Shown here in pieces: positions 3,669 through 56,080 of a stretch of 64,000 nucleotides of DNA. Both the position numbers and the translations under genes were made by a program. The notes under the pieces are model-generated. The model saw only the letters and a list, made by a program, of their open reading frames with translations, was not told the origin of the DNA and did no database searches. The stretch is taken from assembly GCA_015068645.1 (NCBI GenBank), contig SVKD01000003.1, positions 24,471-88,470 on the forward strand. Reading direction: 5' to 3'. Source of the stretch: Oscillospiraceae bacterium. GTDB taxonomy: Bacteria > Bacillota > Clostridia > UMGS1840. Numbering within the stretch: the stretch's first letter is position 1; each line of letters begins with the position of its first letter.

Positions 3669-4013
3669 ATGAAAAAACAAACAATCAACGAAAACTATTT
3701 GGATAAAATCCCCGTAATGAGCGAAAACCTCACCTACAAGGTGAACGATGACGGCATCGTTACCTTGGCGATAGAAAACACGGGAGTGATGAACCGTATC
3801 GCCCAAAAAATCTTTCGTAAGCCAAAAGTCTCCTATATCCACTTGGATGAATTGGGAAGCTTTATCTGGAAATTGATTGACGGAAAAACTGCCATTTTCG
3901 ATATGGGTGATGCCGTAAAAGAGCAGTTTGGCGAAAAGGCAGAGCCCCTTTATCCAAGATTGGCAAAATATATTTCTATTTTGGAAAGTTACGGCTTTGT
4001 CACTCTTAAATAG
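3669..4013 (+). CDS. PqqD-family (RRE-like) small protein
   Basis: 114 aa. The segment LDELGSFIWKLIDGKTAIFDMGDAVKEQFGE...LYPRLAKYISILESYGFV resembles the PqqD winged-helix peptide-binding fold. The ATG lies 1 nt after the OPT stop codon. Confidence 0.55.
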   Translation: MKKQTINENYLDKIPVMSENLTYKVNDDGIVTLAIENTGVMNRIAQKIFRKPKVSYIHLDELGSFIWKLIDGKTAIFDMGDAVKEQFGEKAEPLYPRLAKYISILESYGFVTLK

Positions 4014-4015
4014 AC

Positions 4016-4110
4016 TTGAAAAACCGCGCAGAATTTATAAATCTCACCACTCGCTGTACCGTTATGAAATAAACGGCGTGCCGAGGTCGTCAAGCCCTAC
4101 CCCATCATAA
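4016..4110 (+). repeat. Diverged copy of stop-codon-proximal element (family B), sense with the PqqD-like gene
   Basis: Begins TTGAAAAACCGCGCAGAATTTATAAATCTCACCACTCG 3 nt after the stop. The same 5' block is found after the stops at 4439 and 19356 on the other strand. Confidence 0.55.
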
Positions 4111-4124
4111 AAGATTTGCATAAC

Positions 4125-4162
4125 AAAAACACCGTAGAAATTCAATTTCTACGGTGTTTTTT
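4125..4162. terminator. Bidirectional rho-independent terminator between convergent genes
   Basis: aaaaacaccgtagaaa / tttctacggtgttttt stem, flanked by an A-run and a T-run. Confidence 0.8.
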
Positions 4163-4320
4163 ACTATCATCATTTTATGATTCTCTCTACTCTCAAAAGG
4201 CGAGGTACAAGGCTCTCCCGCTCGGGGAGAGCTGTCAGCAAAGCTGACTGAGAGGGCATAAAAGCGATGGAACTGATTCATTTCGAGGCGTTTTCACCAT
4301 ATCTTTTTTTGTAAGGTGCA

Positions 4321-4433
4321 GAAAAACAGATGCAGAATTTGGAAATCGAATCAAGGCAACGCCTTGACAAGCCCGAAGGCGTACGTGCTGTACGCCGAGC
4401 GGTGAGATTCACAGATTATGCGCTGTTTTTCAA
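4321..4433 (-). repeat. Family B structured element (copy after the phosphohexomutase gene)
   Basis: About 113 nt, highly similar to 19237-19349. Imperfect long palindrome with internal hairpins ggcgtac-N5-gtacgcc and caagg-N5-ccttg. Confidence 0.75.
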
Positions 4434-4438
4434 ACCGT

Positions 4439-6160
4439 TTATTTCAGCACTTCTCTGATTGCGGTATCAAATGCTGCACGTTTTTCCAAAGCTTCTGCTT
4501 CGGTCTTGCCCTTGGTCATAATATATGCCTTGATTTTGGGTTCCGTGCCGGAGGGACGGAAGGAAATCAGGGTGCCGTCTTCTAATTCATAGCTTAACAC
4601 GTTGGAAGGAGGGAATGCCAAGGCAGTTTCTTCTCCTGTCAGCAGATTTTTGGTGGTTGCCACGCTGTAATCATTTGCCAACACAGTTTTCACTCCTGCA
4701 AACTCGGTGGGCACATTGGCACGAAGACCTGCCATTAAGCTCTTGATTTTTTCTATGCCTGCCATACCTTCATGAGTAATGGAAACCAAACCTTCCCGAT
4801 AGTAGCCGTATTTTTCATAAAGGTCGATCTGCACATCTTTTAGGGTTTTGCCCTGTTTTTTATAATATGCCGCCGCTTCGCACAACAACATACAAGCATT
4901 TACGGCATCCTTATCTCTTGCGTGTGTACCGGATAAAAATCCGAAGCTTTCTTCAAAACCGAATAAATAAGTATGTTTACCGGTTTCTTCAAAAATTTTA
5001 ATCTGTTCACCGATAAATTTAAAGCCGGTATACACGTTAATCACTTCAATGGGATAATCTTTTTGGAATTCATAAATCATATTGGTGGTTACGATGGTTT
5101 TGATTACCGCTCCGTTTTGAGGCAGCTTATTTTGTTTCTTCAAACCGTCCAGAATATAATTTACAATCAGAACACCAATCTGATTCCCATTTAAAATTTC
5201 GTAATCTTCATCCGCAGTTTTTAATAAAACTCCCACACGGTCAGAATCAGGGTCAGTACCGATGATAATATCTGCATCTTCTTTTTTTGCATATTCCAAT
5301 GCAATTTTAAACCCGTCGGATTCTTCGGGGTTGGGAGATTTCACGGTGGGGAATGCACCGTCGGGCAATTCCTGCTCTTTCACCACGGTGAGGTTTTTAA
5401 GTCCCATACGGCCTAACACTTCTCTTACAGGGATGTTACCGGAGCCGTGGAACGGAGTATATACCACTTTTAAATCAGTGTCTTTTAAAGCATCGGGGTT
5501 CACGGATAAATTCATAACCGCTTTGTAGTATGCCTCATCCACAGATTCAGGCATCCATTCAATCAGGCCTTGTGCCATAGCATCGTCAAAAGGCATTTTT
5601 TTCACGCCACTGAAGATATCTACCTGCTTCATTTCCTGATATACCACATCTGCTTCTTCGGGAGGAAGCTGTCCGCCATCAGACCAGTATGCTTTATAAC
5701 CGTTGTATTTTGCGGGATTATGAGATGCGGTAATCACAATCCCTGCGGTGGTATTCATTTCACGAATGGCAAAAGACAGCATAGGAGTGGGACGAAGTGA
5801 CGGGAATAAGTACACTTTAATGCCGTTTGCCACTAAAACCATTGCAGATTCTTTTGCAAAAGTATCGGAAAAATGACGGGAATCATATCCAATGGCAACA
5901 CCCTTGTCCATCGCTTCTTTGCCGTTTTTCACAATCAGATTGGCTAACCCTTGGGTTGCCTGACACACGGTGTACACATTCATACCGTTGGTACCTGCAC
6001 GAATAATTCCGCGAAGTCCGCCTGTTCCAAATTCCAAAGAAGTGGAGAAACGTTCTTTGATTTCTTCATCATTCCCTTGAATTCCCAAAAGTTCTGCTTT
6101 TAAGGAAGCATCCAATTCGGGGAAGTTTAACCATTTGTTATACTGTTCGAATGCTGTCAT
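4439..6160 (-). CDS. Alpha-D-phosphohexomutase family enzyme (phosphoglucomutase/phosphomannomutase type)
   Basis: 573 aa. Contains the phosphoserine loop TASHNPAKYNGYK and the metal-binding segment GTDPDSDR. Confidence 0.85.
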   Translation of the reverse strand: MTAFEQYNKWLNFPELDASLKAELLGIQGNDEEIKERFSTSLEFGTGGLRGIIRAGTNGMNVYTVCQATQGLANLIVKNGKEAMDKGVAIGYDSRHFSDTFAKESAMVLVANGIKVYLFPSLRPTPMLSFAIREMNTTAGIVITASHNPAKYNGYKAYWSDGGQLPPEEADVVYQEMKQVDIFSGVKKMPFDDAMAQGLIEWMPESVDEAYYKAVMNLSVNPDALKDTDLKVVYTPFHGSGNIPVREVLGRMGLKNLTVVKEQELPDGAFPTVKSPNPEESDGFKIALEYAKKEDADIIIGTDPDSDRVGVLLKTADEDYEILNGNQIGVLIVNYILDGLKKQNKLPQNGAVIKTIVTTNMIYEFQKDYPIEVINVYTGFKFIGEQIKIFEETGKHTYLFGFEESFGFLSGTHARDKDAVNACMLLCEAAAYYKKQGKTLKDVQIDLYEKYGYYREGLVSITHEGMAGIEKIKSLMAGLRANVPTEFAGVKTVLANDYSVATTKNLLTGEETALAFPPSNVLSYELEDGTLISFRPSGTEPKIKAYIMTKGKTEAEALEKRAAFDTAIREVLK

Positions 6161-15171: not shown

Positions 15172-17577
15172 TTGGCAAAAGCAAAAACAAACAAGAAGGC
15201 CAAAAAGAAAAAAGGCTTTTGGAGAACCTTCTGGAAAATCATCTGGAGTACCATTCTGATTACGGTTCCTCTGGTAATACTGCTTGTTCTCGGTATCCTG
15301 TGGTATATCTTTGCCACCACCGAGCCGATTGACGTGGAAAACCTGCGAATCGATTTGAACAGCTCCATCTACTATCTGGATGAAGATGGCGACAAACATC
15401 TGTTCGAAGAAATTGATGCAACCCAGAACCGTGATTGGGTGGATTACACCGAAGTCCCTCAGTATATGAAGGATGCTTTTGTTTCCATCGAAGATGAACG
15501 TTTCTTCTCCCACACCGGGTTTGACTTGAAGCGTACCACCAAAGCGATCATCGATTATGCAAGAAAAGGTTCCGGAGCTCAGGGTGGTAGTACCATTACT
15601 CAGCAGCTCGTCAAAAACGTCACCAATAATAAAGACCTTACCCCCCGCAGAAAAATTGAAGAAATCTGGTTGGCGTATCAGCTGGAGCAGGACTTGAGCA
15701 AAGAACAAATCCTGGAGCTTTATATGAACACCATCTATCTGGCACAGGGTGTAAACGGTGTGCAAACCGCTGCCGAGTTGTATTTTGATAAAGACGTGTC
15801 AGACCTTTCTTTGGCAGAATGTGCTTCCATTGCAGGGATTACTCAGTTCCCCTCCAGATATGACCCCTTTGTAAATCCTGATAAAAATAAAGAAAAACAG
15901 GAACTCGTGTTAAAGAAAATGCTGGAAACCGGCAAAATCACCCAGGCAGAATATGATGAAGCCGAAGCAGAAGAACTGGTATTTGCAGATCCCGAAGAAC
16001 AACATGAGAAAAACAATATTAAACAGACCTATATGGGTGAAGTAGTTATCAAAGATGCTATCCGCCTCTTAATGGAAGAACAAGGCATCACCGAAGCAGT
16101 CGCTAAAAAACGTGTATACTCCGGCGGTTATCAGATTATCTCCACCGTAGATCCCAACGTGCAGGATGCCATTGACGATACCTACAGCTCCTATAAGGCA
16201 TTCGGAGAATCTCAGAAAGAAGTAATGCCGCAAAGCGCCATCGTTGTAATGGATCCGCAGACCGGTTATGTAAAAGGTCTCACCGGCGGTATCGGCGAAC
16301 GCGAAGGCTCTTACACCCTAAACCGTGCCGTGGATACTTATCGTCAGCCCGGTTCTTGTATGAAACCTCTTGCCGTGTATGCACCGGCACTGGAAGCAGG
16401 ATTAATTACTCCCAACACCCAAATGGTGGATAAAAAATTATCCGGATATTCTCCGAAAAACTATTACAGCGGTTATTACGGCACTATGTCCGTGCAAAGA
16501 GCGGTGGAATTATCCGTTAACACCATTCCCGTGCAGATTATTGAAGACTTAGGTTACGAAGAATCCTACAATTTCCTACGTAACAAATTCCATATCGACA
16601 GTATTGTGGAAGCAGACAAAAACCCGGCTCTGGCGCTTGGTGGTATCACCGACGGTGTCAACGTTATGGATATGACCGCAGCCTATGCAGCATTTGCTAA
16701 TAACGGTATTTACACCGAGCCTACCACTGTTTTGGAAATTTTAGACCATCACGGCAGAACTGTGGTAAAAGCAAATCCCGAATCTACCGCCATTATGAAA
16801 GAAACCACTGCCCAATATATGCATCAGATGCTGATTTCCGTTGTGAACAATGGTACCGGTACTGCAGCGCGTATTTCCGGCGTAAAAGTAGGCGGTAAAA
16901 CCGGTTCTACCGACGGCGATAAAGACAGATGGTTTGTTGGCTACACTCCCAACTATGTGGCGGCAGTATGGTACGGTTATGATACACCTAAACCCACTTC
17001 CTACTCCTACAACCCCGCATTAAAAGGCTGGAAAGCGGTTATGGACGAAATTATGGAAGACGCTCCCAAGCGTGACTATGCAACCAAAACACCCACTTAT
17101 ATTCCCCCGTCCACTTCCTCTATTCGGGTATGTTCCGTTTCGAATAAATTACCCTGTCAGTACTGTATTGACCAAGGCACCACGGTAACCAGAAGCTTCC
17201 GTGACGGAGCAGCACCTACTACCACCTGTTCCAAAGCATTGCACGAAAAATTCAAAGAGGTGGAACCGAAGAACACTCCGAAACCCACCGAAGAAGATTT
17301 ACCGGAAACTACAGCAACACCCGCACCCTCCGTGGAATATGTTCCCGAACCTACAAAGTTGCCTTCTTTGGATAATAGCCATGACAATGACAACAGCGGT
17401 TTGAACTCTGGTTCAGTTTCTAATGAACCTCCCTCGATCCCCACTGTCACCAGCGAACCTGTAGTAACGCAGGCTCCTGCACCCAGTACTTCTTCTCCTG
17501 GTGCTTCTTCTCCCAGCACGTCCACTCCCAGCGCCCCTGCTCCGGAGGTGGGTGCCGAGGTAGCTCCCGCAGCATAA
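15172..17577 (+). CDS. Class A penicillin-binding protein (GT51 glycosyltransferase + transpeptidase) with Pro/Ser/Thr-rich C-terminal tail
   Basis: TTG start after GAGGTG. GT51 motifs are EDERFFSHTGFD, GGSTITQQL and RKIEE. Transpeptidase motifs are SCMK (SxxK), SVN (SxN) and KTGST (KTG). Confidence 0.9.
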   Translation: MAKAKTNKKAKKKKGFWRTFWKIIWSTILITVPLVILLVLGILWYIFATTEPIDVENLRIDLNSSIYYLDEDGDKHLFEEIDATQNRDWVDYTEVPQYMKDAFVSIEDERFFSHTGFDLKRTTKAIIDYARKGSGAQGGSTITQQLVKNVTNNKDLTPRRKIEEIWLAYQLEQDLSKEQILELYMNTIYLAQGVNGVQTAAELYFDKDVSDLSLAECASIAGITQFPSRYDPFVNPDKNKEKQELVLKKMLETGKITQAEYDEAEAEELVFADPEEQHEKNNIKQTYMGEVVIKDAIRLLMEEQGITEAVAKKRVYSGGYQIISTVDPNVQDAIDDTYSSYKAFGESQKEVMPQSAIVVMDPQTGYVKGLTGGIGEREGSYTLNRAVDTYRQPGSCMKPLAVYAPALEAGLITPNTQMVDKKLSGYSPKNYYSGYYGTMSVQRAVELSVNTIPVQIIEDLGYEESYNFLRNKFHIDSIVEADKNPALALGGITDGVNVMDMTAAYAAFANNGIYTEPTTVLEILDHHGRTVVKANPESTAIMKETTAQYMHQMLISVVNNGTGTAARISGVKVGGKTGSTDGDKDRWFVGYTPNYVAAVWYGYDTPKPTSYSYNPALKGWKAVMDEIMEDAPKRDYATKTPTYIPPSTSSIRVCSVSNKLPCQYCIDQGTTVTRSFRDGAAPTTTCSKALHEKFKEVEPKNTPKPTEEDLPETTATPAPSVEYVPEPTKLPSLDNSHDNDNSGLNSGSVSNEPPSIPTVTSEPVVTQAPAPSTSSPGASSPSTSTPSAPAPEVGAEVAPAA

Positions 17578-17683: not shown

Positions 17684-17756
17684 AAAATAAGAACCCGACC
17701 CGATGACGCAATCAAAGATTGCGGTCGGGTGCCCCGGAACCTTGTTGTATTCACAA
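17684..17756 (+). repeat. Family A 73-nt nested-hairpin repeat, copy 1
   Basis: aaaataagaacccgacccgatgacgcaatcaaagattgcggtcgggtgccccggaaccttgttgtattcacaa is identical to 23584-23656 and 26534-26606. Confidence 0.9.
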
Positions 17757-17843
17757 TAAGAACCGATAAACAAAAATTTTCCAAATAAGATGCCACTAAC
17801 TTTTCAAATCATTTTTCGGCATCAACAATCTTTGTGAGGTAGC

Positions 17844-19127
17844 ATGATGAATAACAAACCAAGAACAAACAAACTGAAAAAAATTCTGATAGTCCTGCTA
17901 TGTATTTTAGGAGCACTGCTTGCTGTGTTTCTCGGAATTGTAATAGGCACAAGCCGTCAGAAAACAGAAACCGCAACCTCTAAAACCAATACACCAAGCA
18001 GTCCTCAGACAAAGATAGCTTCTTCCATTTACTATCTGAACGAAAATGAAGAACCCATCCTGTTTAACGACATCAACGATATTTCCTACATCACCGAAAT
18101 CATTGAAAAAGATGCCGCTGCCCTTTTGGCAGAACAAGAAGGACTAAGCGTAAAAGATGCCAAGGAAAAACTCTTCACCGAAGGATACCGAATTATCTCC
18201 ACCGTGGATCCCGAAGTACAAAATGCAATTGACACCGTATATTCCGATCCTAAAAACTTTGTCTCCGACCTGCCGGAGGATAAAGAACATCCTCAAAGCG
18301 CTATTGTGATAATGGATCCCGAGACCGGTTATGTGAAAGGTATTAGCGGCGGTATTGGAAAACGCGCAGGGAAGTACACCTTAAACCGTGCCGTGGAGAC
18401 CTCCCGTCAACCCGGTTCCTGTATATCCCCTCTTGCCGTGTATGCACCGGCAATCGAAGCAGGTTTAATCACTCCGAGTACTGTTGTGGAAGATAAACAA
18501 TTATCCGGATATTCCCCTAGAAACTCTTACAGCGGTTATTACGGCAAAATGTCCGTGCAAAGAGCGGTGGAATTATCCGTTAACACCATTCCCGTGCAGA
18601 TTATTGAAGACTTAGGTTACGAAGAATCCTACAATTTCCTGCGCAACAAATTCCATATCGACAGTATTGTGGAAGATGATAAAAACCCGGCTCTGGCACT
18701 TGGCGGCATCATCGAAGGTATCAACGTTATGGATATGACCGCAGCCTATGCCACCTTTGCTAATGAAGGTATTTATACCAAACCTACCGCTGTACTGGAA
18801 ATTCAGGATCAAGACGGTAACACCATCGTAAAAGCAGAACCTGAAACAACAGTTGCCATGAGTCCGGAAACTGCACAAGCAATGCATCAAATGTTAGTTT
18901 CAGTGGTTGAAAACGGTACCGGTACTGCAGCGCGTATTTCCGGCGTAACAGTAGGCGGTAAAACCGGTTCTACCGACGGTGATAAAGACAGATGGTTTGT
19001 TGGCTACACTCCCAACTATGTGGCGGCAGTATGGTCCGGTTATGATACACCTAAACCCACTTCCTACCCCTACAACCCCGCATTAAAAGGCTGGAAAGCA
19101 GTTATGGATGTGCTTGAACACGAATAG
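17844..19127 (+). CDS. Transpeptidase-only paralog of the upstream class A PBP (GT51 domain deleted; SxxK changed to SCIS)
   Basis: 427 aa with an N-terminal TM segment. It aligns to residues ~60-95 and ~290-640 of the upstream PBP, with long identical stretches. SVN and KTGST are retained, but the SxxK lysine is Ser. Confidence 0.8.
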   Translation: MMNNKPRTNKLKKILIVLLCILGALLAVFLGIVIGTSRQKTETATSKTNTPSSPQTKIASSIYYLNENEEPILFNDINDISYITEIIEKDAAALLAEQEGLSVKDAKEKLFTEGYRIISTVDPEVQNAIDTVYSDPKNFVSDLPEDKEHPQSAIVIMDPETGYVKGISGGIGKRAGKYTLNRAVETSRQPGSCISPLAVYAPAIEAGLITPSTVVEDKQLSGYSPRNSYSGYYGKMSVQRAVELSVNTIPVQIIEDLGYEESYNFLRNKFHIDSIVEDDKNPALALGGIIEGINVMDMTAAYATFANEGIYTKPTAVLEIQDQDGNTIVKAEPETTVAMSPETAQAMHQMLVSVVENGTGTAARISGVTVGGKTGSTDGDKDRWFVGYTPNYVAAVWSGYDTPKPTSYPYNPALKGWKAVMDVLEHE

Positions 19128-19155: not shown

Positions 19156-19190
19156 CAAAAAACAGTATGCATTTTGCATACTGTTTTTTT
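19156..19190. terminator. Bidirectional rho-independent terminator (PBP paralog / hisD)
   Basis: aaaaaacagtatgca / tgcatactgttttttt. Confidence 0.8.
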
Positions 19191-19236
19191 ATGGAAATAA
19201 GTTTGGCGCCATTTTCTATCCAATATTCGAAACGAA

Positions 19237-19349
19237 GAAAAATGGATGCAGAATTCGGAAATCGAATCAAGGAAAAGCCTTGACAAGCCCGAAGCCGTAC
19301 CGAGTGTACGGCGAGTGGTGAGATTCACGGATTATGCACCATTTTTCAA
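19237..19349 (-). repeat. Family B structured element (copy after hisD)
   Basis: Highly similar to 4321-4433. It starts 6 nt after the hisD stop codon in the sense of the gene. Confidence 0.75.
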
Positions 19350-19355
19350 GTTTAG

Positions 19356-20651
19356 CTAGAGAGGTCTCTTTCTTACTGCCATTGCATGTGCCGCAAAGCC
19401 CTCCAACTCCGCAAAGTTTCCGGCTTTGTCTTTTACGGAGATGAAGCCGTCTTTGGTTACGTAACCGAAAGAAGAACGTTTCATAAAGTCTAACACACCA
19501 ACGGAAGAATAGGTTTTTGCAAAACCGCCGGTGGGTAAGATAGCGTTGGGACCCATTAAGAAGTTACACAAGGTAACGGGAGTCCATTCGCCTAACAGGA
19601 TTTCTCCTGCATTTTTGATTTGGGGAAGCACGTCAAAAGGTTTTTCACAAAGCACTTCCATATGTTCGGGAGCATATTCGTTCACAAAAGCAACGGACTG
19701 CTCAAAGTTATCGGTAATAATTGCACCGCCGTAGGTGGATAAGTTGGTGTTGATAAAGTTCTGACGCAGCTCCGGCAGTTCTTTGATATATTCGGTTGCC
19801 AACGCACACACTTCGTGCACAAATGCTTCGTTGTGACATACTAACAGTGCCGCAGAGTCAGGACCGTGTTCGGCTTCGATTAACCAGTCCAACGCTGCTT
19901 TTTTGGGGTCGGTGGAATCATCACACAAAATGATGGATTCGCTGGGACCTGCCGGCAGACCGGTATCAATGTAGTTTGCCAGCACACGTTTTGCCGCGGT
20001 GGCAAAAGCGTTACCGGGACCGATTACTTTTCTGGTTTTCGGAATGGTTTCGGTACCGAATGCAACTGCTGCAATCGCCTGAATACCGCCAACTTTAAAA
20101 ATTTCGGTGATTCCTAACAGTTTTGCCGCAGTTAAGATGGCATCGTCCACTTTTCCTTCTTTATTGGGAGGAGTTACCACCACGATTTTTTCCACCCCTG
20201 CAACCACAGCAGGAACACCCAGCATCAAAAGCACGGAAGGGAAACTTCCTTTTCCACCGGGCACATACAGGCAAACGCTTTCAATGGGAGTGGTTTTTTC
20301 TCCGGCGATAATGCCTTTATCCACCTCGGTCATCCACATTTCTTCGGGTTTCTGTTTTTCGTGGAAATTTTTGATATTGTTGTATGCATAGGTAATAGCT
20401 TCTTTGGAGGTAGCATCAATACGATTGTATGCTTCCTCAATTTCTTCGACTGAAACTTTCATCGTTTCAGAAGTTAAAGCAATTTTATCAAATTTTTCGG
20501 TATATTTTAATACCGCTTTGTCTCCGTTTTCTTTCACGTCCCAAGAAACTTCTTTCGCCACATCCATATAGGCTGTAATATCAATTTCAGCACGTTTTAA
20601 GATGAACTCTTTTTTTTCGGGAGTGAGTTCACTGTATTTATAGATATTCAT
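19356..20651 (-). CDS. hisD: Histidinol dehydrogenase
   Basis: GPGNAFATAAKR, EAEHGPDSAALLV and overall length fit HisD. Start set to MNIYKYSEL (ATG 20649-20651). Confidence 0.85.
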   Translation of the reverse strand: MNIYKYSELTPEKKEFILKRAEIDITAYMDVAKEVSWDVKENGDKAVLKYTEKFDKIALTSETMKVSVEEIEEAYNRIDATSKEAITYAYNNIKNFHEKQKPEEMWMTEVDKGIIAGEKTTPIESVCLYVPGGKGSFPSVLLMLGVPAVVAGVEKIVVVTPPNKEGKVDDAILTAAKLLGITEIFKVGGIQAIAAVAFGTETIPKTRKVIGPGNAFATAAKRVLANYIDTGLPAGPSESIILCDDSTDPKKAALDWLIEAEHGPDSAALLVCHNEAFVHEVCALATEYIKELPELRQNFINTNLSTYGGAIITDNFEQSVAFVNEYAPEHMEVLCEKPFDVLPQIKNAGEILLGEWTPVTLCNFLMGPNAILPTGGFAKTYSSVGVLDFMKRSSFGYVTKDGFISVKDKAGNFAELEGFAAHAMAVRKRPL

Positions 20652-20675
20652 AGAAAAGCTCCTAAAAATCAAAAA

Positions 20676-23583: not shown

Positions 23584-23656
23584 AAAATAAGAACCCGACC
23601 CGATGACGCAATCAAAGATTGCGGTCGGGTGCCCCGGAACCTTGTTGTATTCACAA
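23584..23656 (+). repeat. Family A repeat, copy 2
   Basis: Identical to copy 1. Confidence 0.9.
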
Positions 23657-23660
23657 TAAA

Positions 23661-23848
23661 AATCCTGCCGTTCGCGTCAGCCGGGTATTTATTAGAACCA
23701 ACACATTTTATAAGGGAGCCCATCTCCTCTCGTCAATTGTAGGCCCACCGCCGTTTTCGGCCGTATGGGGAACGTGCGACTGAGGGTAAGCACCCACCTG
23801 CACATGCAGGTTTCTAATATTATCTTCGGGCAACGGCTCGGCGGGATT
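23661..23848 (+). ncRNA. Candidate structured ncRNA, 6S-like architecture (unverified)
   Basis: 10-bp closing helix aatcctgccg (23661-70) / cggcgggatt (23839-48). Further helices agccg/cggct and attagaacc/ggtttctaat. Apical hairpin gccg-tttt-cggc, and a small hairpin acctgcacatgcaggt on the 3' side of a central loop. Followed by its own terminator and then a separate glyA promoter. Confidence 0.35.
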
Positions 23849-23858
23849 CCAATAGTTT

Positions 23859-24006: not shown

Positions 24007-25245
24007 ATGGAATTTACCAACATCATCAGAAAAACAGACTCCAAAGTGGCAGATGCCATTGAAAGAGAAGTAAAAAGACAGCGCTCCAAAATTGAACTGA
24101 TTGCCTCCGAAAACTTTGTTTCCGAAGCAGTACTGCAGGCAGTTGGCTCTCCCTTAACCAATAAATATGCAGAAGGATATCCCGGCAGACGTTACTACGG
24201 CGGTTGTGAATGTGTAGACATTGTGGAAGATATCGCAAGAGACCGTGCAAAAGCAATCTTTGGTTGTGACCATGCAAACGTGCAGCCTCATTCCGGTGCC
24301 AATGCAAACACCGCAGTATATTTTGCAATGTTAGAACCCGGTGATACCATCTTAGGTATGAGCTTGGCACACGGCGGTCACTTAAGCCACGGCAGCCCTG
24401 TAAACATCTCCGGTAAATATTTTAATATCGTTTCCTACGGTGTTGATGATGATACTCACACGATTGATTACGATAAAGTAAGAGAATTAGCATTGGAACA
24501 TAAACCCAAAATGATTGTGGCTGGTGCATCCGCATACCCCAGAATCATTGATTTTCCCAAATTCAGAGAAATCGCCGACGAAGTGGGTGCATACTTAATG
24601 GTAGATATCGCTCACATTGCAGGCTTAGTTGCAGCAGGGTTACATCCCAGCCCGGTTCCCTATGCAGATTTTGTTACCACCACTACCCACAAAACCTTAA
24701 GAGGTCCCCGCGGCGGTATGATTATGTGTAAGGAAGAATACGCCAAAGCAATTGACAAAGCAATCTTCCCCGGCCTGCAGGGTGGTCCTTTAATGCATGT
24801 TATCGCAGGCAAAGCGGTAGCCTTCGGCGAAGCTTTAACTCACGAATTTAAAGAATATCAGAAACGCATCATTGAGAATGCAAAAGCGATGGCAGATGCA
24901 TTCTTAGAAGAGGGCATTGACTTGGTTTCCGGCGGTACCGATAACCACTTAATGCTCTTAGATTTAAGAAAATTAAATGTTACCGGGAAAGATGCAGAAC
25001 ACAACTTAGACGAAGTGGGTATCACCGTTAACAAAAACGCTATTCCTAACGATCCCCAGTCTCCCTTCATCACCAGCGGTATCCGTATTGGTACTGCAGC
25101 AGTGACCACTAGAGGTATGGGCGTGGAAGATATGAAAACCATCGCACACTTAATTGCTTTAACCTTAAAAGACTTTGAAGGCAATAAAATGATGGTGCAA
25201 AAAGGCGTTGCAGATTTAGTTGCAAAATACAAACTGTATGAATAA
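24007..25245 (+). CDS. glyA: Serine hydroxymethyltransferase
   Basis: Full-length SHMT, with the PLP-lysine region [14 protein letters not shown]. Confidence 0.95.
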
Positions 25246-26533
25246 GCCGTTAGCAGACAGATTACGACCCCAAACACTCACCGACGTTGTCGGACAAAGG
25301 CATCTCCTCTCCGAGGGGATGCCTGTTTTTGCTGTGTTGGAACGCTCCAAGCAAGCGGGAATGAGCCTGCCCAATATGATTTTTTACGGACCTTCCGGCA
25401 CAGGAAAAACCACGGTTGCCAATCTGATTGCAAAAAACATCAATAAAAAACTGTATAAATTAAACGCCACCAACGCCTCAGTTGCCGATATTAAATCCAT
25501 TATTGCAGATTTAGACGGTTTTGAAGCCCAAAACGGCGTGGTCTTATACTTAGACGAAATTCAGAATTTCAATAAGAAGCAACAGCAATCCTTATTGGAA
25601 TATGTGGAAAAAGGAGACATCACCTTAATCGCCTCCACCACCGAGAATCCCTATTTTTATATTTATAATGCCCTCTTATCCCGATGCACCGTGTTCGAAT
25701 TTAAAGAGCTGTCTGATGAGGATATCAAAGGAGCAGTAATTCGTGCAGTTTCCATTCTGCAGGAAGATATGGCAATCACTTTTTCAGAGGATGCCATCTC
25801 TCATATTGCCACCACTTCGGGCGGTGATTGCAGAAAAGCTTTAAACACCGTGGAAATGTGTTCCATGATTGCAAAAATGGACAAAGACGGTACCATAGCG
25901 GTTACCTTAGAAGATGTGGAACGTACCACCTCCAAAAAAGCATTTCGTTACGATAAAGATGGCGACAGTCACTACGATGTGCTCTCTGCCTTGCAGAAAT
26001 CCATCCGTGGAAGCGATCCTGATGCAGCTCTTCACTACTTGGCAAGACTCATCGCAGGCGGTGACCTGATTTCCATTTGCAGAAGAATTCAGGTAATGGC
26101 GTCCGAAGACATCGGTCTTGCCTATCCTCAGGCGGTTTCCATTGTGAAATCCTGCGTGGATGCGGCATTCCAGTTAGGATTCCCGGAAGCACGTCTTCCT
26201 TTGGCACAAGCGGTTATTTTACTGGCAACGGCTCCCAAATCCAACTCCGTAATTATGAGTATTGATGCGGCATTATCCGATGTGGAACATTCCCACACGG
26301 GGGACATTCCCGCCCATTTAAAAGACGGTCATTATGCCGGTGCGAAAAAGCTGGGACACGCCCAGGGGTATCAATATCCCCATAATTACCCCAATCACTA
26401 TGTAGCCCAACAGTATTTGCCCGATGAAATTATGGACAAAAGCTACTATTTCCCTTGCGATAATAAATTTGAAAACGAAATCCAAAATTACGCAAAAAAA
26501 ATAGATGCTCTCTGGTCCAAAAAGAAAAGATAG
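25238..26533 (+). CDS. rarA: Replication-associated recombination protein A (AAA+ ATPase)
   Basis: [16 protein letters not shown], Walker [10 protein letters not shown] and a MgsA C-terminal domain. The ATG overlaps the glyA stop (atgaataa). Confidence 0.9.
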
Positions 26534-26606
26534 AAAATAAGAACCCGACCCGATGACGCAATCAAAGATTGCGGTCGGGTGCCCCGGAACCTTGTTGTAT
26601 TCACAA
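26534..26606 (+). repeat. Family A repeat, copy 3 (starts 1 nt after the rarA stop codon)
   Basis: Identical to copies 1 and 2. Confidence 0.9.
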
Positions 26607-26640
26607 AAAAAACGGTATCAAAAGATACCGTTTTTTTTAT
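26605..26640. terminator. Bidirectional terminator between rarA and polA
   Basis: aaaaaaaacggtatc / gataccgtttttttt. Confidence 0.8.
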
Positions 26641-42799: not shown

Positions 42800-42920
42800 A
42801 TTCTTGCTCCTTTTTTCCATTCTTACATTCTTTTCACTTTTTCTATATTATAACGTATAAAACAAAAAATGTCAATTATATTTTACAAAATTTTACAAAA
42901 TTGTAGATTTTTTCTTATTA

Positions 42921-42990
42921 TGAATACAACAAGGTTCCGAGGTACCCGACCGCAATCTTTGATTGCGTTATCGGGTCGGGTTCTTATTTT
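42921..42990 (-). repeat. Family A repeat, copy 4 (inverted, a few substitutions)
   Basis: The reverse complement matches copies 1-3 except gatgacg>gataacg, tgccccgg>tacctcgg and the 3' end. Confidence 0.85.
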
Positions 42991-43213: not shown

Positions 43214-43290
43214 GGCCTGGTAGTTCAGCTGGTTAGAACGCTAGCCTGTCACGCTAGAGGTCGAGGGTTCGATCCCCTTCCAGGTCGCCA
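43214..43290 (+). tRNA. tRNA-Asp (GTC)
   Basis: Cloverleaf read by hand. Anticodon loop cuGUCac, T-loop ttcgatc, encoded CCA. Confidence 0.9.
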
Positions 43291-43333
43291 CTTTTCTTTA
43301 AATCCCTTGGAGATTGAGCCGTGACTAACATTT

Positions 43334-43409
43334 GCCTCTGTAGCTCAGTCGGTAGAGCAAGGGACTGAAAATCCCTGTGTCGGCGGTTCGATTCCACCCG
43401 GAGGCACCA
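43334..43409 (+). tRNA. tRNA-Phe (GAA)
   Basis: Anticodon loop cuGAAaa and encoded CCA. One C-A mismatch in the T stem. Confidence 0.85.
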
Positions 43410-43434
43410 ACAGCTTTTTAAGAAAATATAATAT

Positions 43435-43509
43435 GCGGGAGTGGCTCAGTGGTAGAGCGTCACCTTGCCAAGGTGAACGTCGCGAGTTCGAATCTCGTCT
43501 TCCGCTCCA
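43435..43509 (+). tRNA. tRNA-Gly (GCC)
   Basis: Anticodon loop uuGCCaa, encoded CCA. Confidence 0.9.
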
Positions 43510-43567
43510 TTTGATAAAAGGCACAATGCATATTGTGCCTTTTATCAACTAAAAAACAATTTCATAT

Positions 43568-43641
43568 GGCGCCATAGCCAAGTGGTAAGGCATCGGTCTG
43601 CAACACCTTGATCCCCAGTTCGAATCTGGGTGGCGCCTCCA
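43568..43641 (+). tRNA. tRNA-Cys (GCA)
   Basis: Anticodon loop cuGCAac, with acceptor and T arms similar to Bacillus tRNA-Cys. The base of the anticodon stem has two mismatches. Confidence 0.75.
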
Positions 43642-43677: not shown

Positions 43678-43794
43678 ACTTATTACCTATTCACTTTTCA
43701 CTATTACCTAAAAAACCTTGTCGATTTTTGGAAAGTAATAAGTAATAGTGAATAAGGAATAAGTATCGGCTTTGCTTTCGCAAAGCTTGTTTTT
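43678..43794 (+). repeat. tRNA-trailer module (family C): CT-rich arm, AG-rich arm GGAAAGTAATAAGTAATAGTGAATAAGGAATAAG, second terminator gctttgc/gcaaagc
   Basis: The 3' ~70 nt closely match the reverse complement of 55497-55573, downstream of the other tRNA operon. Confidence 0.8.
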
Positions 43795-52018: not shown

Positions 52019-53644
52019 TTAATGGATGCATTCGTCGCCTGTACTCAGTAAAGAATCGTATACAAGAGAGGGTGATTTTCCCTGATAAATGCAGGAATTG
52101 TTTCCATCATATATCATACAATACTCTAAATCTTTTGATACATATACAGCATAGCCATCATCGAAACTAATGAGGTGGTGGCGGTATTTGTCAGCAAAAG
52201 CTTCTGATACATAGGTTCCGTTTTTGTCAATAAATCTCCATTTACCATTTTCCCAAACTCGAGCAACACCATTCTTGAAAGGTTCCGCCGTGTCGAATTT
52301 GAGTTCCGTCACAAAGTCTCCCTTAGTGTTAATATAACCCCACTTTTCTCCAACCATTACCGCTGCTAACCCTTCGGAAAAACTGTAAGCATTGTCAAAC
52401 TGAGGCTCTACTATTACATCACCGTTTTTGTCTACAAAACCGGACTTACCATCAACATCTAAAATTGCCAAACCGTCTTCAAAAAACAGAGGAAGATACG
52501 CCTGAGGAGTTACCACATAATATCCGCTTTGATCAATACAGCCCCAATCATCTCCAACCACAATATTCGCAATACCGTCTTGAAAATCACCTGCCATATC
52601 AAACTGAGGTTCCACTACATAGTAACCATCTGTACCAATATATCCGCACTTGCCATCAACCTCTACTGCCGCTAAACCTTCGGAAAACGGACTTGCAAAA
52701 TCAAATTGAGGTTTTGCTACATAGGAACCGTCAGTATCAATGTAACCGTATTGATTACTAACTTGCACTACTGCCATGCCTTCCGAAAACGCATTCGCAA
52801 AATCAAACCGTGGTGCTATTACATATCGACCGCTTCTGTCAATATATCCCCATTTGTCTCCAACTCTAACATCTGCCAGTCCTTCGGAAAAATCATAAGC
52901 ATAATCAAACTGAGGTGCTACTGCATAGTAACCATCTGTACCGATATAACCATACTGACCGTTAACTTCTACTACTGCCAGTCCTTCGGAAAAATCATCA
53001 GCATAATCAAACTGAGGTGCTACTACATAGTAACCATCTGTACCGATATAACCATACTGACCGTTAACTTCTACTACTGCCAATCCTTCGGAAAAATTTC
53101 TGGCCCCATCAAACTGACATGGAATGGCAAGCTCCCCTTGTTGATTCAAATACCCCCATTTTCCTGTTTCGTTGCTCGCAATCAAGGTATATCCACTGTG
53201 GAATAAAGGTTTCTCATAAACGCCGTCATCACTGCCAATGGCTACGATTCTTTCCTCTGCAAACCATTCCACAGAAACTCCAAACGATTCGGCAATCGCA
53301 CGAACCGGTACCAAAGTTCTATCATTCAAGATACAAGCAGGACTGTCTAATGCCACAGCGGCACCGTTGACATACATCGTGGCATCATCCACAGTTAATT
53401 CAACGGTAATATCCCCCTTTTGAGAAACAACCGTTCTGGTGGTTTCATTCCAATCCACAGTTGCCCCCAAAGCCTCAAAAATTGCTCGTAAGGGCACCAT
53501 TGTTCTGTCATTGATAATCTGAGGCGGCACGTCAAAGGCAATTTCATCGCCATAGAGCAACACCTTCAAAGGTTCCTCTGCCATAACAGGCATAGTAGTC
53601 ACCAACATCAATATTGCCAGCAATAAACCAATCCCACGTTTCAT
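52019..53644 (-). CDS. Secreted protein with two copper-amine-oxidase-N-like (stalk) domains and a WG/KWG repeat array
   Basis: Signal peptide, two copies of DRTMVPLRAIFEALGATV-type domains, then about 10 repeats of the form FSEGLA.V...GKWGYID..G..V..P.FD. Confidence 0.75.
   Translation of the reverse strand: MKRGIGLLLAILMLVTTMPVMAEEPLKVLLYGDEIAFDVPPQIINDRTMVPLRAIFEALGATVDWNETTRTVVSQKGDITVELTVDDATMYVNGAAVALDSPACILNDRTLVPVRAIAESFGVSVEWFAEERIVAIGSDDGVYEKPLFHSGYTLIASNETGKWGYLNQQGELAIPCQFDGARNFSEGLAVVEVNGQYGYIGTDGYYVVAPQFDYADDFSEGLAVVEVNGQYGYIGTDGYYAVAPQFDYAYDFSEGLADVRVGDKWGYIDRSGRYVIAPRFDFANAFSEGMAVVQVSNQYGYIDTDGSYVAKPQFDFASPFSEGLAAVEVDGKCGYIGTDGYYVVEPQFDMAGDFQDGIANIVVGDDWGCIDQSGYYVVTPQAYLPLFFEDGLAILDVDGKSGFVDKNGDVIVEPQFDNAYSFSEGLAAVMVGEKWGYINTKGDFVTELKFDTAEPFKNGVARVWENGKWRFIDKNGTYVSEAFADKYRHHLISFDDGYAVYVSKDLEYCMIYDGNNSCIYQGKSPSLVYDSLLSTGDECIH
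52875..53078. repeat. Two near-identical 102-bp tandem units within the WG-repeat gene
   Basis: Units 52875-52976 and 52977-53078 differ at 2 positions. Other repeats in the gene are much more diverged. Confidence 0.85.
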
Positions 53645-55496: not shown

Positions 55497-55621
55497 AAAT
55501 AAAAAAGCTTTGCCAAAGGCAAAGCAACCAAACTTCTTCCTTATTCACTATTCCTTATTACTTTCCAAAAATCCGCACAACAATCTTTTAGTGAAGATGG
55601 AAAAAGGAATAGGGAAAAAGT
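55497..55621 (-). repeat. tRNA-trailer module (family C), second copy
   Basis: The minus strand reads gatttttggaaagtaataaggaatagtgaataaggaagaag...gctttgcctttggcaaagctttttt. This matches 43723-43794. Confidence 0.8.
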
Positions 55622-55652: not shown

Positions 55653-55728
55653 TGGTGAGCCATCGGCGATTCGAACGCCGGACAACTTGATTAAAAGTCA
55701 AGTGCTCTACCGACTGAGCTAATGGCCC
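55653..55728 (-). tRNA. tRNA-Lys (TTT)
   Basis: Reverse complement folds as a cloverleaf. Anticodon loop cuUUUaa, encoded CCA. Confidence 0.9.
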
Positions 55729-55734
55729 ATATAT

Positions 55735-55810
55735 TGGCTGGGATAGCTGGACTCGAACCAGCGAATGCAGGAGTCAAAGTCCTGTGCCTTACCGACTTGG
55801 CGATATCCCA
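55735..55810 (-). tRNA. tRNA-Gln (TTG)
   Basis: Anticodon stem cagga/tcctg, loop cuUUGac, encoded CCA. Confidence 0.9.
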
Positions 55811-55829
55811 TCATATCAAAGTAATATAA

Positions 55830-55907
55830 TGGGGTGGATAATCGGATTCGAACCGATGACCCCCAGAGCCACAATCTGGTGCTCTAACCAACTGAGCTAT
55901 ACCCACC
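55830..55907 (-). tRNA. tRNA-His (GTG)
   Basis: Anticodon loop uuGUGgc, an extra 5' G, encoded CCA. Confidence 0.85.
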
Positions 55908-55920
55908 ATAAAAGACAAAG

Positions 55921-55997
55921 TGGCGCGCCTGAAGAGATTCGAACTCCTGGCCTACTGCTTAGAAGGCAGTTGCTCTATCCGGCTGAGCTACAGGCGC
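55921..55997 (-). tRNA. tRNA-Arg (TCT)
   Basis: Anticodon stem actgc/gcagt, loop cuUCUaa, encoded CCA. Confidence 0.9.
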
Positions 55998-56006
55998 ATA
56001 AAATAA

Positions 56007-56080
56007 TGGAGCGGGTGATGGGAATCGAACCCACACAATCAGCTTGGAAGGCTGAGATTCTACCATTGAACTACACCCGC
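56007..56080 (-). tRNA. tRNA-Gly (TCC)
   Basis: Anticodon loop cuUCCaa, encoded CCA. Confidence 0.9.

Follow-up and report, generated by a model that had tools for sequence, protein, structure and literature searches.

The 64,000-nt stretch of DNA analysed here (the window) contains two full-length copies and one degenerate copy of a repeated palindromic element, each of them directly downstream of a protein-coding gene. Copy 1 follows the phosphohexomutase gene (pgm; ORF 4439-6160, PGM_PMM domains), and copy 2 follows the histidinol dehydrogenase gene hisD (ORF 19356-20672, PF00815). The degenerate copy 3 lies on the opposite strand, after an ORF of the PqqD family. The features of these loci are given below; scores are those of the covariance model R1, which was built from 12 full copies, and labels beginning with L denote loci from other genomes.

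4313..4435, minus strand: copy 1, full-length element after the phosphohexomutase gene (R1 144.3 bits, E=4.5e-32)
19229..19351, minus strand: copy 2, full-length element after hisD (R1 142 bits)
4014..4112 (approximate), plus strand: copy 3, degenerate remnant of a long-loop variant, recognised from inverted repeat I6 and the sequence
4439..4441, minus strand: TAA stop codon of the phosphohexomutase gene, with a gap of 3 nt to model position 1 of copy 1
19356..19358, minus strand: TAG stop codon of hisD, with a gap of 4 nt to model position 1 of copy 2
4011..4013, plus strand: TAG stop codon of the PqqD-family ORF 3669-4013, 1-2 nt before copy 3
19160..19192: terminator-like palindrome (A-tract, hairpin, T-tract) between copy 2 and the convergent ORF 17844-19127, found by eye from the sequence
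4125..4162: terminator-like palindrome (A-tract, hairpin, T-tract) between copy 3 and copy 1, kept in L015
19202..19216, minus strand: 15-nt fragment GAAAATGGCGCCAAA, identical to the 5' end of the hisD-site variant of L141
4262..4312, minus strand: possible core-deleted remnant of a second tandem copy, assigned with low confidence from an alignment of orthologous spacers

The preliminary description of this DNA had noticed a nearly identical unit of about 113 nt that begins 5-6 nt after the stop codons of two unrelated minus-strand genes. The coordinates match: a pairwise repeat search aligns 4320-4433 with 19236-19349 (114 nt, 86% identity), and TTGAAAAA starts 5 nt 3' of the pgm TAA and 6 nt 3' of the hisD TAG. 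With the boundaries of the covariance model the gap between stop codon and element becomes 3-4 nt. Three diagnostic sub-patterns match at copies 1 and 2 only in the 64 kb, where 0-0.04 matches are expected by chance. R1 applied to the window with filters off found the two intact copies only and missed copy 3, which forms the 49-nt inverted repeat I6 with copy 2 (80% complementary). Copy 3 retains the 5' half of the element, ACTTGAAAAACCGCGCAGAAT...CTCACCACTCGCTGTACCGTTATG, and has lost the fold (MFE z=+0.9). Since this plus-strand copy follows the PqqD-family ORF, the window has a convergent pair of elements (copies 1 and 3), each on its own gene; a second such pair was found in L006.

The element was also said to lie between the stop codon and an intrinsic terminator. 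This placement holds for copy 2, which is followed by the terminator-like palindrome at 19160-19192; a simple terminator scanner made no call there. For copy 1, the nearest terminator-like palindrome is about 150 nt away (~4125-4162). The spacer between copies 3 and 1 also has a compound palindrome at 4205-4258, ctctcccgctcggggagag + tgtcagcaaagctgaca, which is missing from the orthologous spacer of L015; a similar motif is present in L018.

Both full-length copies are imperfect palindromes with two internal hairpins, as originally described. Their fold z-scores range from -5.1 to -6.7 on both strands, and none of 200 shuffled sequences folds equally well. The consensus structure predicted by RNAalifold is a three-way junction with a long basal stem and two hairpins. 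On the gene strand, hairpin 1 is NNGTAC-loop-GTACNN, located between CACC-N-CTCG and CTTCGGG (GGCGTAC-N5-GTACGCC in copy 1), and hairpin 2 is TCAAGG-N5-CCTTGA. The terminal arms of about 27 nt are the imperfect inverted repeats GAAAAACAGCGCATAATCTGTGAATC and GATTTCCAAATTCTGCATCTGTTTTTC, and the basal stem is bracketed by GAAAAAC and GTTTTTC in a terminator-like manner. On the folded strand the core hairpin is flanked by CCCGAAG and CGAGNGGTGA, with no GTAG.

Two compensatory differences had been read from copies 1 and 2: in copy 2, C-G takes the place of T-A in the basal helix and of G-C in the apical hairpin. Both were confirmed, and the covariation extends beyond two copies: compensatory (double) changes occur in 14 of 35 pairs on the gene-sense strand (12 copies) and in 16 of 39 pairs on the opposite strand (14 copies). 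The outer stems differ between subfamilies yet remain complementary, and the interior hardly varies. Some copies lack hairpin 2 or have other sequence in its place, whereas the core is invariant. The basal stems did not align when MAFFT was applied across all groups.

The element had not been recognised as a named RNA family, and a search of Rfam 15 agrees with this, permissive thresholds included. The element was unmatched at gathering thresholds, positions 3990-4460 of the window were unmatched at E<=10, and the elements were unmatched in 20 related loci and, at E<=1, in 6 loci. By eye, the element was also compared with the consensus of kink-turn, C/D box, twister, hammerhead and group II domain V motifs, which were rejected because their defining nucleotides or strand order do not fit. 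A small plus-strand ORF (SD-like AAGGTG, ATG, MQN...PEGV..Y.ER) was rejected because its frame is not kept and because substitutions in the hairpin track pairing (GGC/GCC, GCU/AGC, GAC/GUC); indels shift the frame, and start and stop are both retained in 33 of 90 copies only.

An exact scan for a 19-base core in one genome per species supplied the loci for model building. It identified 17 loci in seven uncultured 'Clostridia bacterium' gut MAGs, and two further matches in Alphaproteobacteria that we judged to be due to chance. In 187 kb of loci from the seven related MAGs, R1 found 38 credible copies. Direct tandem arrays of two to four units on one strand are present in L005, L008, L010 and L016, with units 10-20 nt apart, and six contigs terminate within the element. 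The preliminary description left out this multicopy, REP- or MITE-like behaviour, namely tandem arrays, contig-end breaks, and gain and loss between species.

The position of the arrays is far from random with respect to genes, in line with the placement first seen at pgm and hisD. All 22 evaluable arrays have the same orientation as the upstream long ORF, and in 16 of them the stop codon is no more than 15 nt away (median 7 nt). The other six have a different module of about 90-130 nt, starting with CTTGAtAAAA, between the stop codon and the element. At the distal end, a convergent ORF within 60 nt was found for none of 17 arrays. The upstream genes encode unrelated, housekeeping functions, including LeuRS, type III glutamine synthetase (GlnA), HisD, pgm, Ldh, HPF, ThiI, YebC and an ABC transporter; hence no gene-specific regulation appears to be involved. 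The stop codons abutting the element in the window and L002-L020 comprise 15 TAG and 8 TAA codons and no TGA. Among all long ORFs of the same loci, element-adjacent genes included, TAA is found 52 times, TAG 23 times and TGA 11 times. TAA and TAG alternate between orthologs in four of four comparable families. The enrichment of TAG at element-adjacent stops hints at an interaction with translation termination.

The CTTGAtAAAA module is a repeated post-stop module in its own right. It consists of CTTGAtAAAAGAACAyAGACCGCAAAAGGCA followed by a terminator-like hairpin and then by TGCCTTTTGC, and was found in L007, L008, L010, L017, L018, L020 and many of L021-L100. Covariation is seen in its long-range pairing (CACACAAGGCA/TGCCTTGTGT; GTTGGGCGGCA/TGCCGCCCAAC), and in gut Firmicutes the module is fused to the core domain of the element.

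Copies of the element are gained, lost and replaced between species. At the hisD site, relatives with 94-96% identity have different variants of the element, and relatives with 82% and 71% identity have no element. The variant in the 96%-identical relative, L141, has a 5' end that matches window positions 19202-19216; judging from this match, the fragment looks like a relic of an older copy displaced from the stop codon by a newer one. In L015, the element and an intact second copy (R1 match L015:3802-3916) come after the pgm ortholog, whose product has ~90% amino-acid identity across the alignment; the second copy corresponds to the possible remnant at 4262..4312. Copy 3 is missing at the orthologous site of L015, where the terminator comes immediately after a TAA stop codon. 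Between the window and L015, the orthologous copy after pgm is 91% identical, compared with 62.5% at the third codon positions of pgm, and we conclude that the sequence of the family is under constraint. Occupied orthologous sites across species fit host function as well as mobility.

A metagenome scan with a pattern for the core of all variants, CACCNCTCGNNGTA-N5-9-TACNNCTTCGGG, yielded at least 120 stretches with the core, and R1 applied to 80 listed metagenome loci gave 73 matches of 26-57 bits. The shared core is 32 nt long. The listed wider-family copies keep the core and the basal stem, hairpin 2 being absent or replaced, and fall into three groups. Group 1 comprises gut-Firmicutes contigs. 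Group 2 (~38-49% GC) is Campylobacterota-like, with a flanking QueE 84% identical to that of a Helicobacteraceae MAG. In group 3 (59-71% GC), a flanking PPi-phosphofructokinase is closest to Fibrobacterota proteins (65-68%). Every listed copy of the Campylobacterota-like and high-GC groups has its core no more than 51 nt from a co-oriented stop codon. Core placement is looser in the gut-Firmicutes group, where in many members a terminator-like hairpin separates the core from the stop codon; the U-tract is absent in high-GC members. An OLE RNA (L095:72-735) and a THF riboswitch (L025:341-449) were found on contigs that also bear the core motif, and in L050 a long tandem repeat of the heptamer AGTTAGA adjoins the element.

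The preliminary description placed the element in a transcribed 3' UTR of the upstream gene and took the covariation as a sign of selection on a folded RNA or ssDNA. The repeated branched hairpin, the covariation and the placement agree with this proposal, but the reading as a 3'-UTR RNA is only partly supported because the wobble pairs of the core favour the antisense strand. An alignment-free count of core-helix G.U pairs in 125 distinct copies gave 61 on the antisense strand and 4 on the sense strand (p=4e-14), and the narrow clade alone gave 15 and 1, respectively. Counts for the whole narrow-family element do not differ significantly (40 vs 34), since two invariant positions are G.U on the sense strand. 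RNAfold prefers the antisense strand in 27 of 34 narrow-family and 63 of 65 listed wider-family copies; in the latter the sense strand is on average 8 kcal/mol less stable. About half of this strand difference is due to base composition, and after dinucleotide shuffling the antisense strand is preferred in 48 of 64 listed wider-family copies and in 19 of 34 narrow-family copies (not significant). The G.U asymmetry thus assigns the fold of the core to the bottom strand, whereas neither strand is significantly favoured over the narrow-family element as a whole. The internal loops of the antisense strand are purine-rich (GAA/UGA and GAA/GA), and a single Campylobacterota-like copy has up to 7 G.U pairs, which argues for RNA over a DNA hairpin.

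Replication was considered as a cause of the orientation. A replication-strand explanation was rejected because the convergent copies that share one spacer, in the window and in L006, are each oriented on their own gene.

We regard it as about an even call that these copies represent a large, previously unannotated family of structured extragenic repeats, REP/BIME-like and of the ERIC/BOX/bcr1 kind. The unit would be an imperfect palindrome of ~125 bp that folds into a three-way junction, with the core CACC-N-CTCG-[NNGTAC-loop-GTACNN]-CTTCGGG on the gene strand. Such units would occupy the short spacer between stop codon and terminator, mostly of housekeeping genes and always in the orientation of the gene, and would multiply there into tandem arrays. 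The invariant core hairpin with its purine-rich loops could serve as a recognition site for a trans-acting protein, possibly an HUH/RAYT-like enzyme or an RNA-binding factor, that would keep the family consensus the same in different species and phyla. The fold under selection would form on the strand opposite the gene. We speculate that the local effect is REP-like, with the 3'-end hairpin acting as a barrier or terminator for transcripts arriving from either side. The antisense preference is awkward for a REP-like role in the 3' UTR. From established replication geometry, moreover, the sense strand would be the one exposed as ssDNA when a co-directional gene is replicated.

REPs are multicopy extragenic palindromes found on the 3' side of genes, in tandem and convergent spacers and almost never in divergent ones; they are often clustered and hairpin-forming, their location varies between strains, and their consensus is kept by a trans-acting factor (bioRxiv 10.64898/2026.03.23.713779; PMC5581495). 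They act as local terminators and decay barriers (bioRxiv 10.64898/2026.03.23.713779). Group 1 RAYTs are found in Clostridia (PMC5581495), an analogy that supports a REP-like kinship. Like REPs and BIMEs, our element is multicopy, extragenic, located on the 3' side of genes, clustered and hairpin-forming (38 copies in 187 kb). In contrast to REPs, which are hairpins of 20-40 nt, it is a three-way junction of 113-125 nt without a GTAG head, and it forms direct tandem arrays rather than the inverted doublets of REPINs and BIMEs. It is also strictly gene-oriented, begins 0-11 nt from the stop codon, and has a core common to several phyla. No cognate transposase or RAYT was seen: no protein family recurs beside the copies, and a six-frame translation of 862 kb contained no RAYT/IS200 motif (Y..NPV.AG type), in a crude test on partial genomes.

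The small, MITE-like ERIC/IRU, Correia, BOX/RUP/SPRITE and bcr1 repeats are modular imperfect palindromes of ~100-150 bp that are scattered through transcribed intergenic DNA and are predicted to fold as RNA or ssDNA. For bcr1 of Bacillus cereus, there are reports of compensatory changes. The element resembles ERIC/BOX/bcr1-type repeats in form, being an imperfect palindrome of similar size and structure. Unlike them, it lacks a TA or TTTAT target duplication, is conserved in the interior and not at the ends, and its selected strand appears to be antisense to the gene. As a REP/RAYT, TIR-MITE or attC element in the formal sense, the family fails at least one tested defining feature in each case.

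A more tentative reading, to which we give distinctly less than an even chance, is a cross-phylum structured module that folds on the strand opposite the gene. It could be a portable RNA scaffold, antisense to the gene, that protects or regulates highly expressed genes at their 3' ends, or a bottom-strand ssDNA element of a new class that, by attC- or HUH-like logic, targets the spacer between stop codon and terminator. In either form, a putative conserved protein would read the CCCGAAG-hairpin-CGAGNGGUGA motif. A literature search by sequence strings and keywords found no description of the element.

We consider it rather unlikely that the element is a sense-strand, cis-acting 3'-UTR RNA that stabilises the mRNA of the upstream gene, terminates its transcription by means of the basal stem and the following UUUUU, or couples translation termination to the fate of the 3' end. 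The position between stop codon and terminator, the co-orientation of all 22 arrays, the folding of the sense strand itself (z ~ -5) and the two invariant sense-strand G.U positions are compatible with such an RNA. So are the TAG-rich, TGA-free adjacent stops and the GAAAAAC and GTTTTTC sequences, which bracket the basal stem as in a terminator. It is opposed by the 61:4 asymmetry of core wobble pairs, the lower stability of the sense strand in the listed wider family, the functionally unrelated upstream genes, the high-GC members without a U-tract, and the terminator-like hairpin that precedes the core in many gut-Firmicutes members. As to termination in particular, the narrow family resembles bidirectional intrinsic terminators in having an A-tract, hairpin and T-tract right after the stop codon, with a basal stem followed by UUUUUC. 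It differs from them in its branched hairpin of ~110 nt and invariant core, in the canonical terminator that usually follows, and in receiving no call from the scanner.

The strand asymmetry and the better antisense folds would be accommodated by a module for a structured ncRNA made from the opposite strand, which we think unlikely. Its product could work as an antisense or insulator RNA, halting or processing transcripts that run into highly expressed genes from the 3' end, or as a scaffold with a 3' tail antisense to the gene end. The purine-rich antisense loops resemble those of protein-binding RNA motifs, and the G.U pairs, up to 7 per copy, would be poorly tolerated in a DNA hairpin. The difficulty lies in transcription. 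No sigma-70 promoter-like site was found upstream on that strand in the window, and no conserved motif in the aligned flanks; the arrangement TTTACA-N17-AAAAAT occurs in a few gut-Firmicutes copies and is not general. Array units are just 10-20 nt apart, nothing is known to transcribe this strand in tandem gene pairs, and a bidirectional terminator stands between the narrow-family element and convergent genes.

An ordinary MITE with terminal inverted repeats, derived from a DDE-type IS, is improbable. In that case the covariation of the outer stem would arise from both ends tracking the site of one transposase, and the fold would have no function. The element does have imperfect inverted repeats of ~27 nt at its ends, it is multicopy with gain, loss and a nested insertion, and TA is present at the ends of many copies, within the TAG or TAA stop to the left and within CCTTA to the right. 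No significant target-site duplication was detected: the longest common substring of left and right flanks averages 4.7 nt compared with 4.4 nt for shuffled pairs, and TA duplication at the stop codon gives no signal above the control. Conservation is lowest at the ends and highest in the interior, the reverse of a typical MITE; the short internal hairpin covaries too, with a strand-specific wobble bias; and the strict gene orientation is unexpected for a cut-and-paste element. BLAST of plasmid (72,556) and phage (50,697) records left the element unmatched and thus revealed no parent IS. One viral contig bears the core.

A structure-specific recombination site that folds as bottom-strand ssDNA, by the logic of integron attC, is highly improbable: the start just behind the stop codon of an ORF in the same orientation, the favoured bottom-strand fold, the conservation of structure over outer sequence, the variable terminal structure and the AAC...GTT ends (GAAAAAC/GTTTTTC) are attC-like, but the attC R''/R' consensus (RYYYAAC, GTTRRRY) is matched at AAC and GTT alone, the ends of the Campylobacterota-like group (GTTCCAG...CTGGAAC) have the reversed order, no integrase or recurrent neighbouring protein family was seen beside the copies, and the flanks are large housekeeping genes (LeuRS, GlnA-III, HisD, pgm, Ldh, HPF, ThiI), often convergent, instead of a cassette array. 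To our knowledge, integrons have not been reported in Firmicutes.

REPs and other small structured repeats are abundant, with functions that are still disputed. The family of REP-like repeats proposed here is a well-defined example from uncultured gut Clostridia. Three of its traits are unusual: a branched fold with a nearly invariant core across distant phyla, strict stop-codon adjacency and co-orientation, and a wobble signature of the non-mRNA strand. If the core is a protein recognition site, the protein that binds it would show the mechanism of spread or the role at gene ends. The family also breaks metagenome assemblies at contig ends, and a covariance model would aid its annotation.

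Several other repeats were observed in the window. A second, unrelated repeat family, D5 (79 nt, two hairpins), is present at 17684-17762 (+), 23584-23662 (+), 26534-26612 (+) and 42912-42990 (-). These copies are 97-99% identical to the reference, and D5 also occurs at L017:~1560-1640 and at the end of L002. The copy at 26534-26612 directly abuts the TAG of ORF 25220-26533 (0 nt) and has a terminator behind it; another copy extends as far as the 5' end of the 6S RNA gene (23659-23851, Rfam RF00013, 77.5 bits). In L017, D5 is inserted within the element studied here, with TT on both sides. As D5 is also found in this position, the spacer between stop codon and terminator may be a general niche for small repeats in this genome.

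Two tRNA clusters of opposite orientation (43214-43638, plus strand; 55656-56080, minus strand) are accompanied by a 42-nt inverted repeat with 95% complementarity (43723-43764 and 55532-55573). A 102-nt tandem repeat at 52404-53111 encodes 34-residue repeats (…FSEGLAVVEVNGQYGYIGTDGYY…) in the minus-strand ORF 52019-53644, an ordinary repeat protein. Direct repeats at 16228-17045 and 18291-19108 have 83-92% identity, and ORFs 15172-17577 and 17844-19127 therefore share a paralogous C-terminal region.
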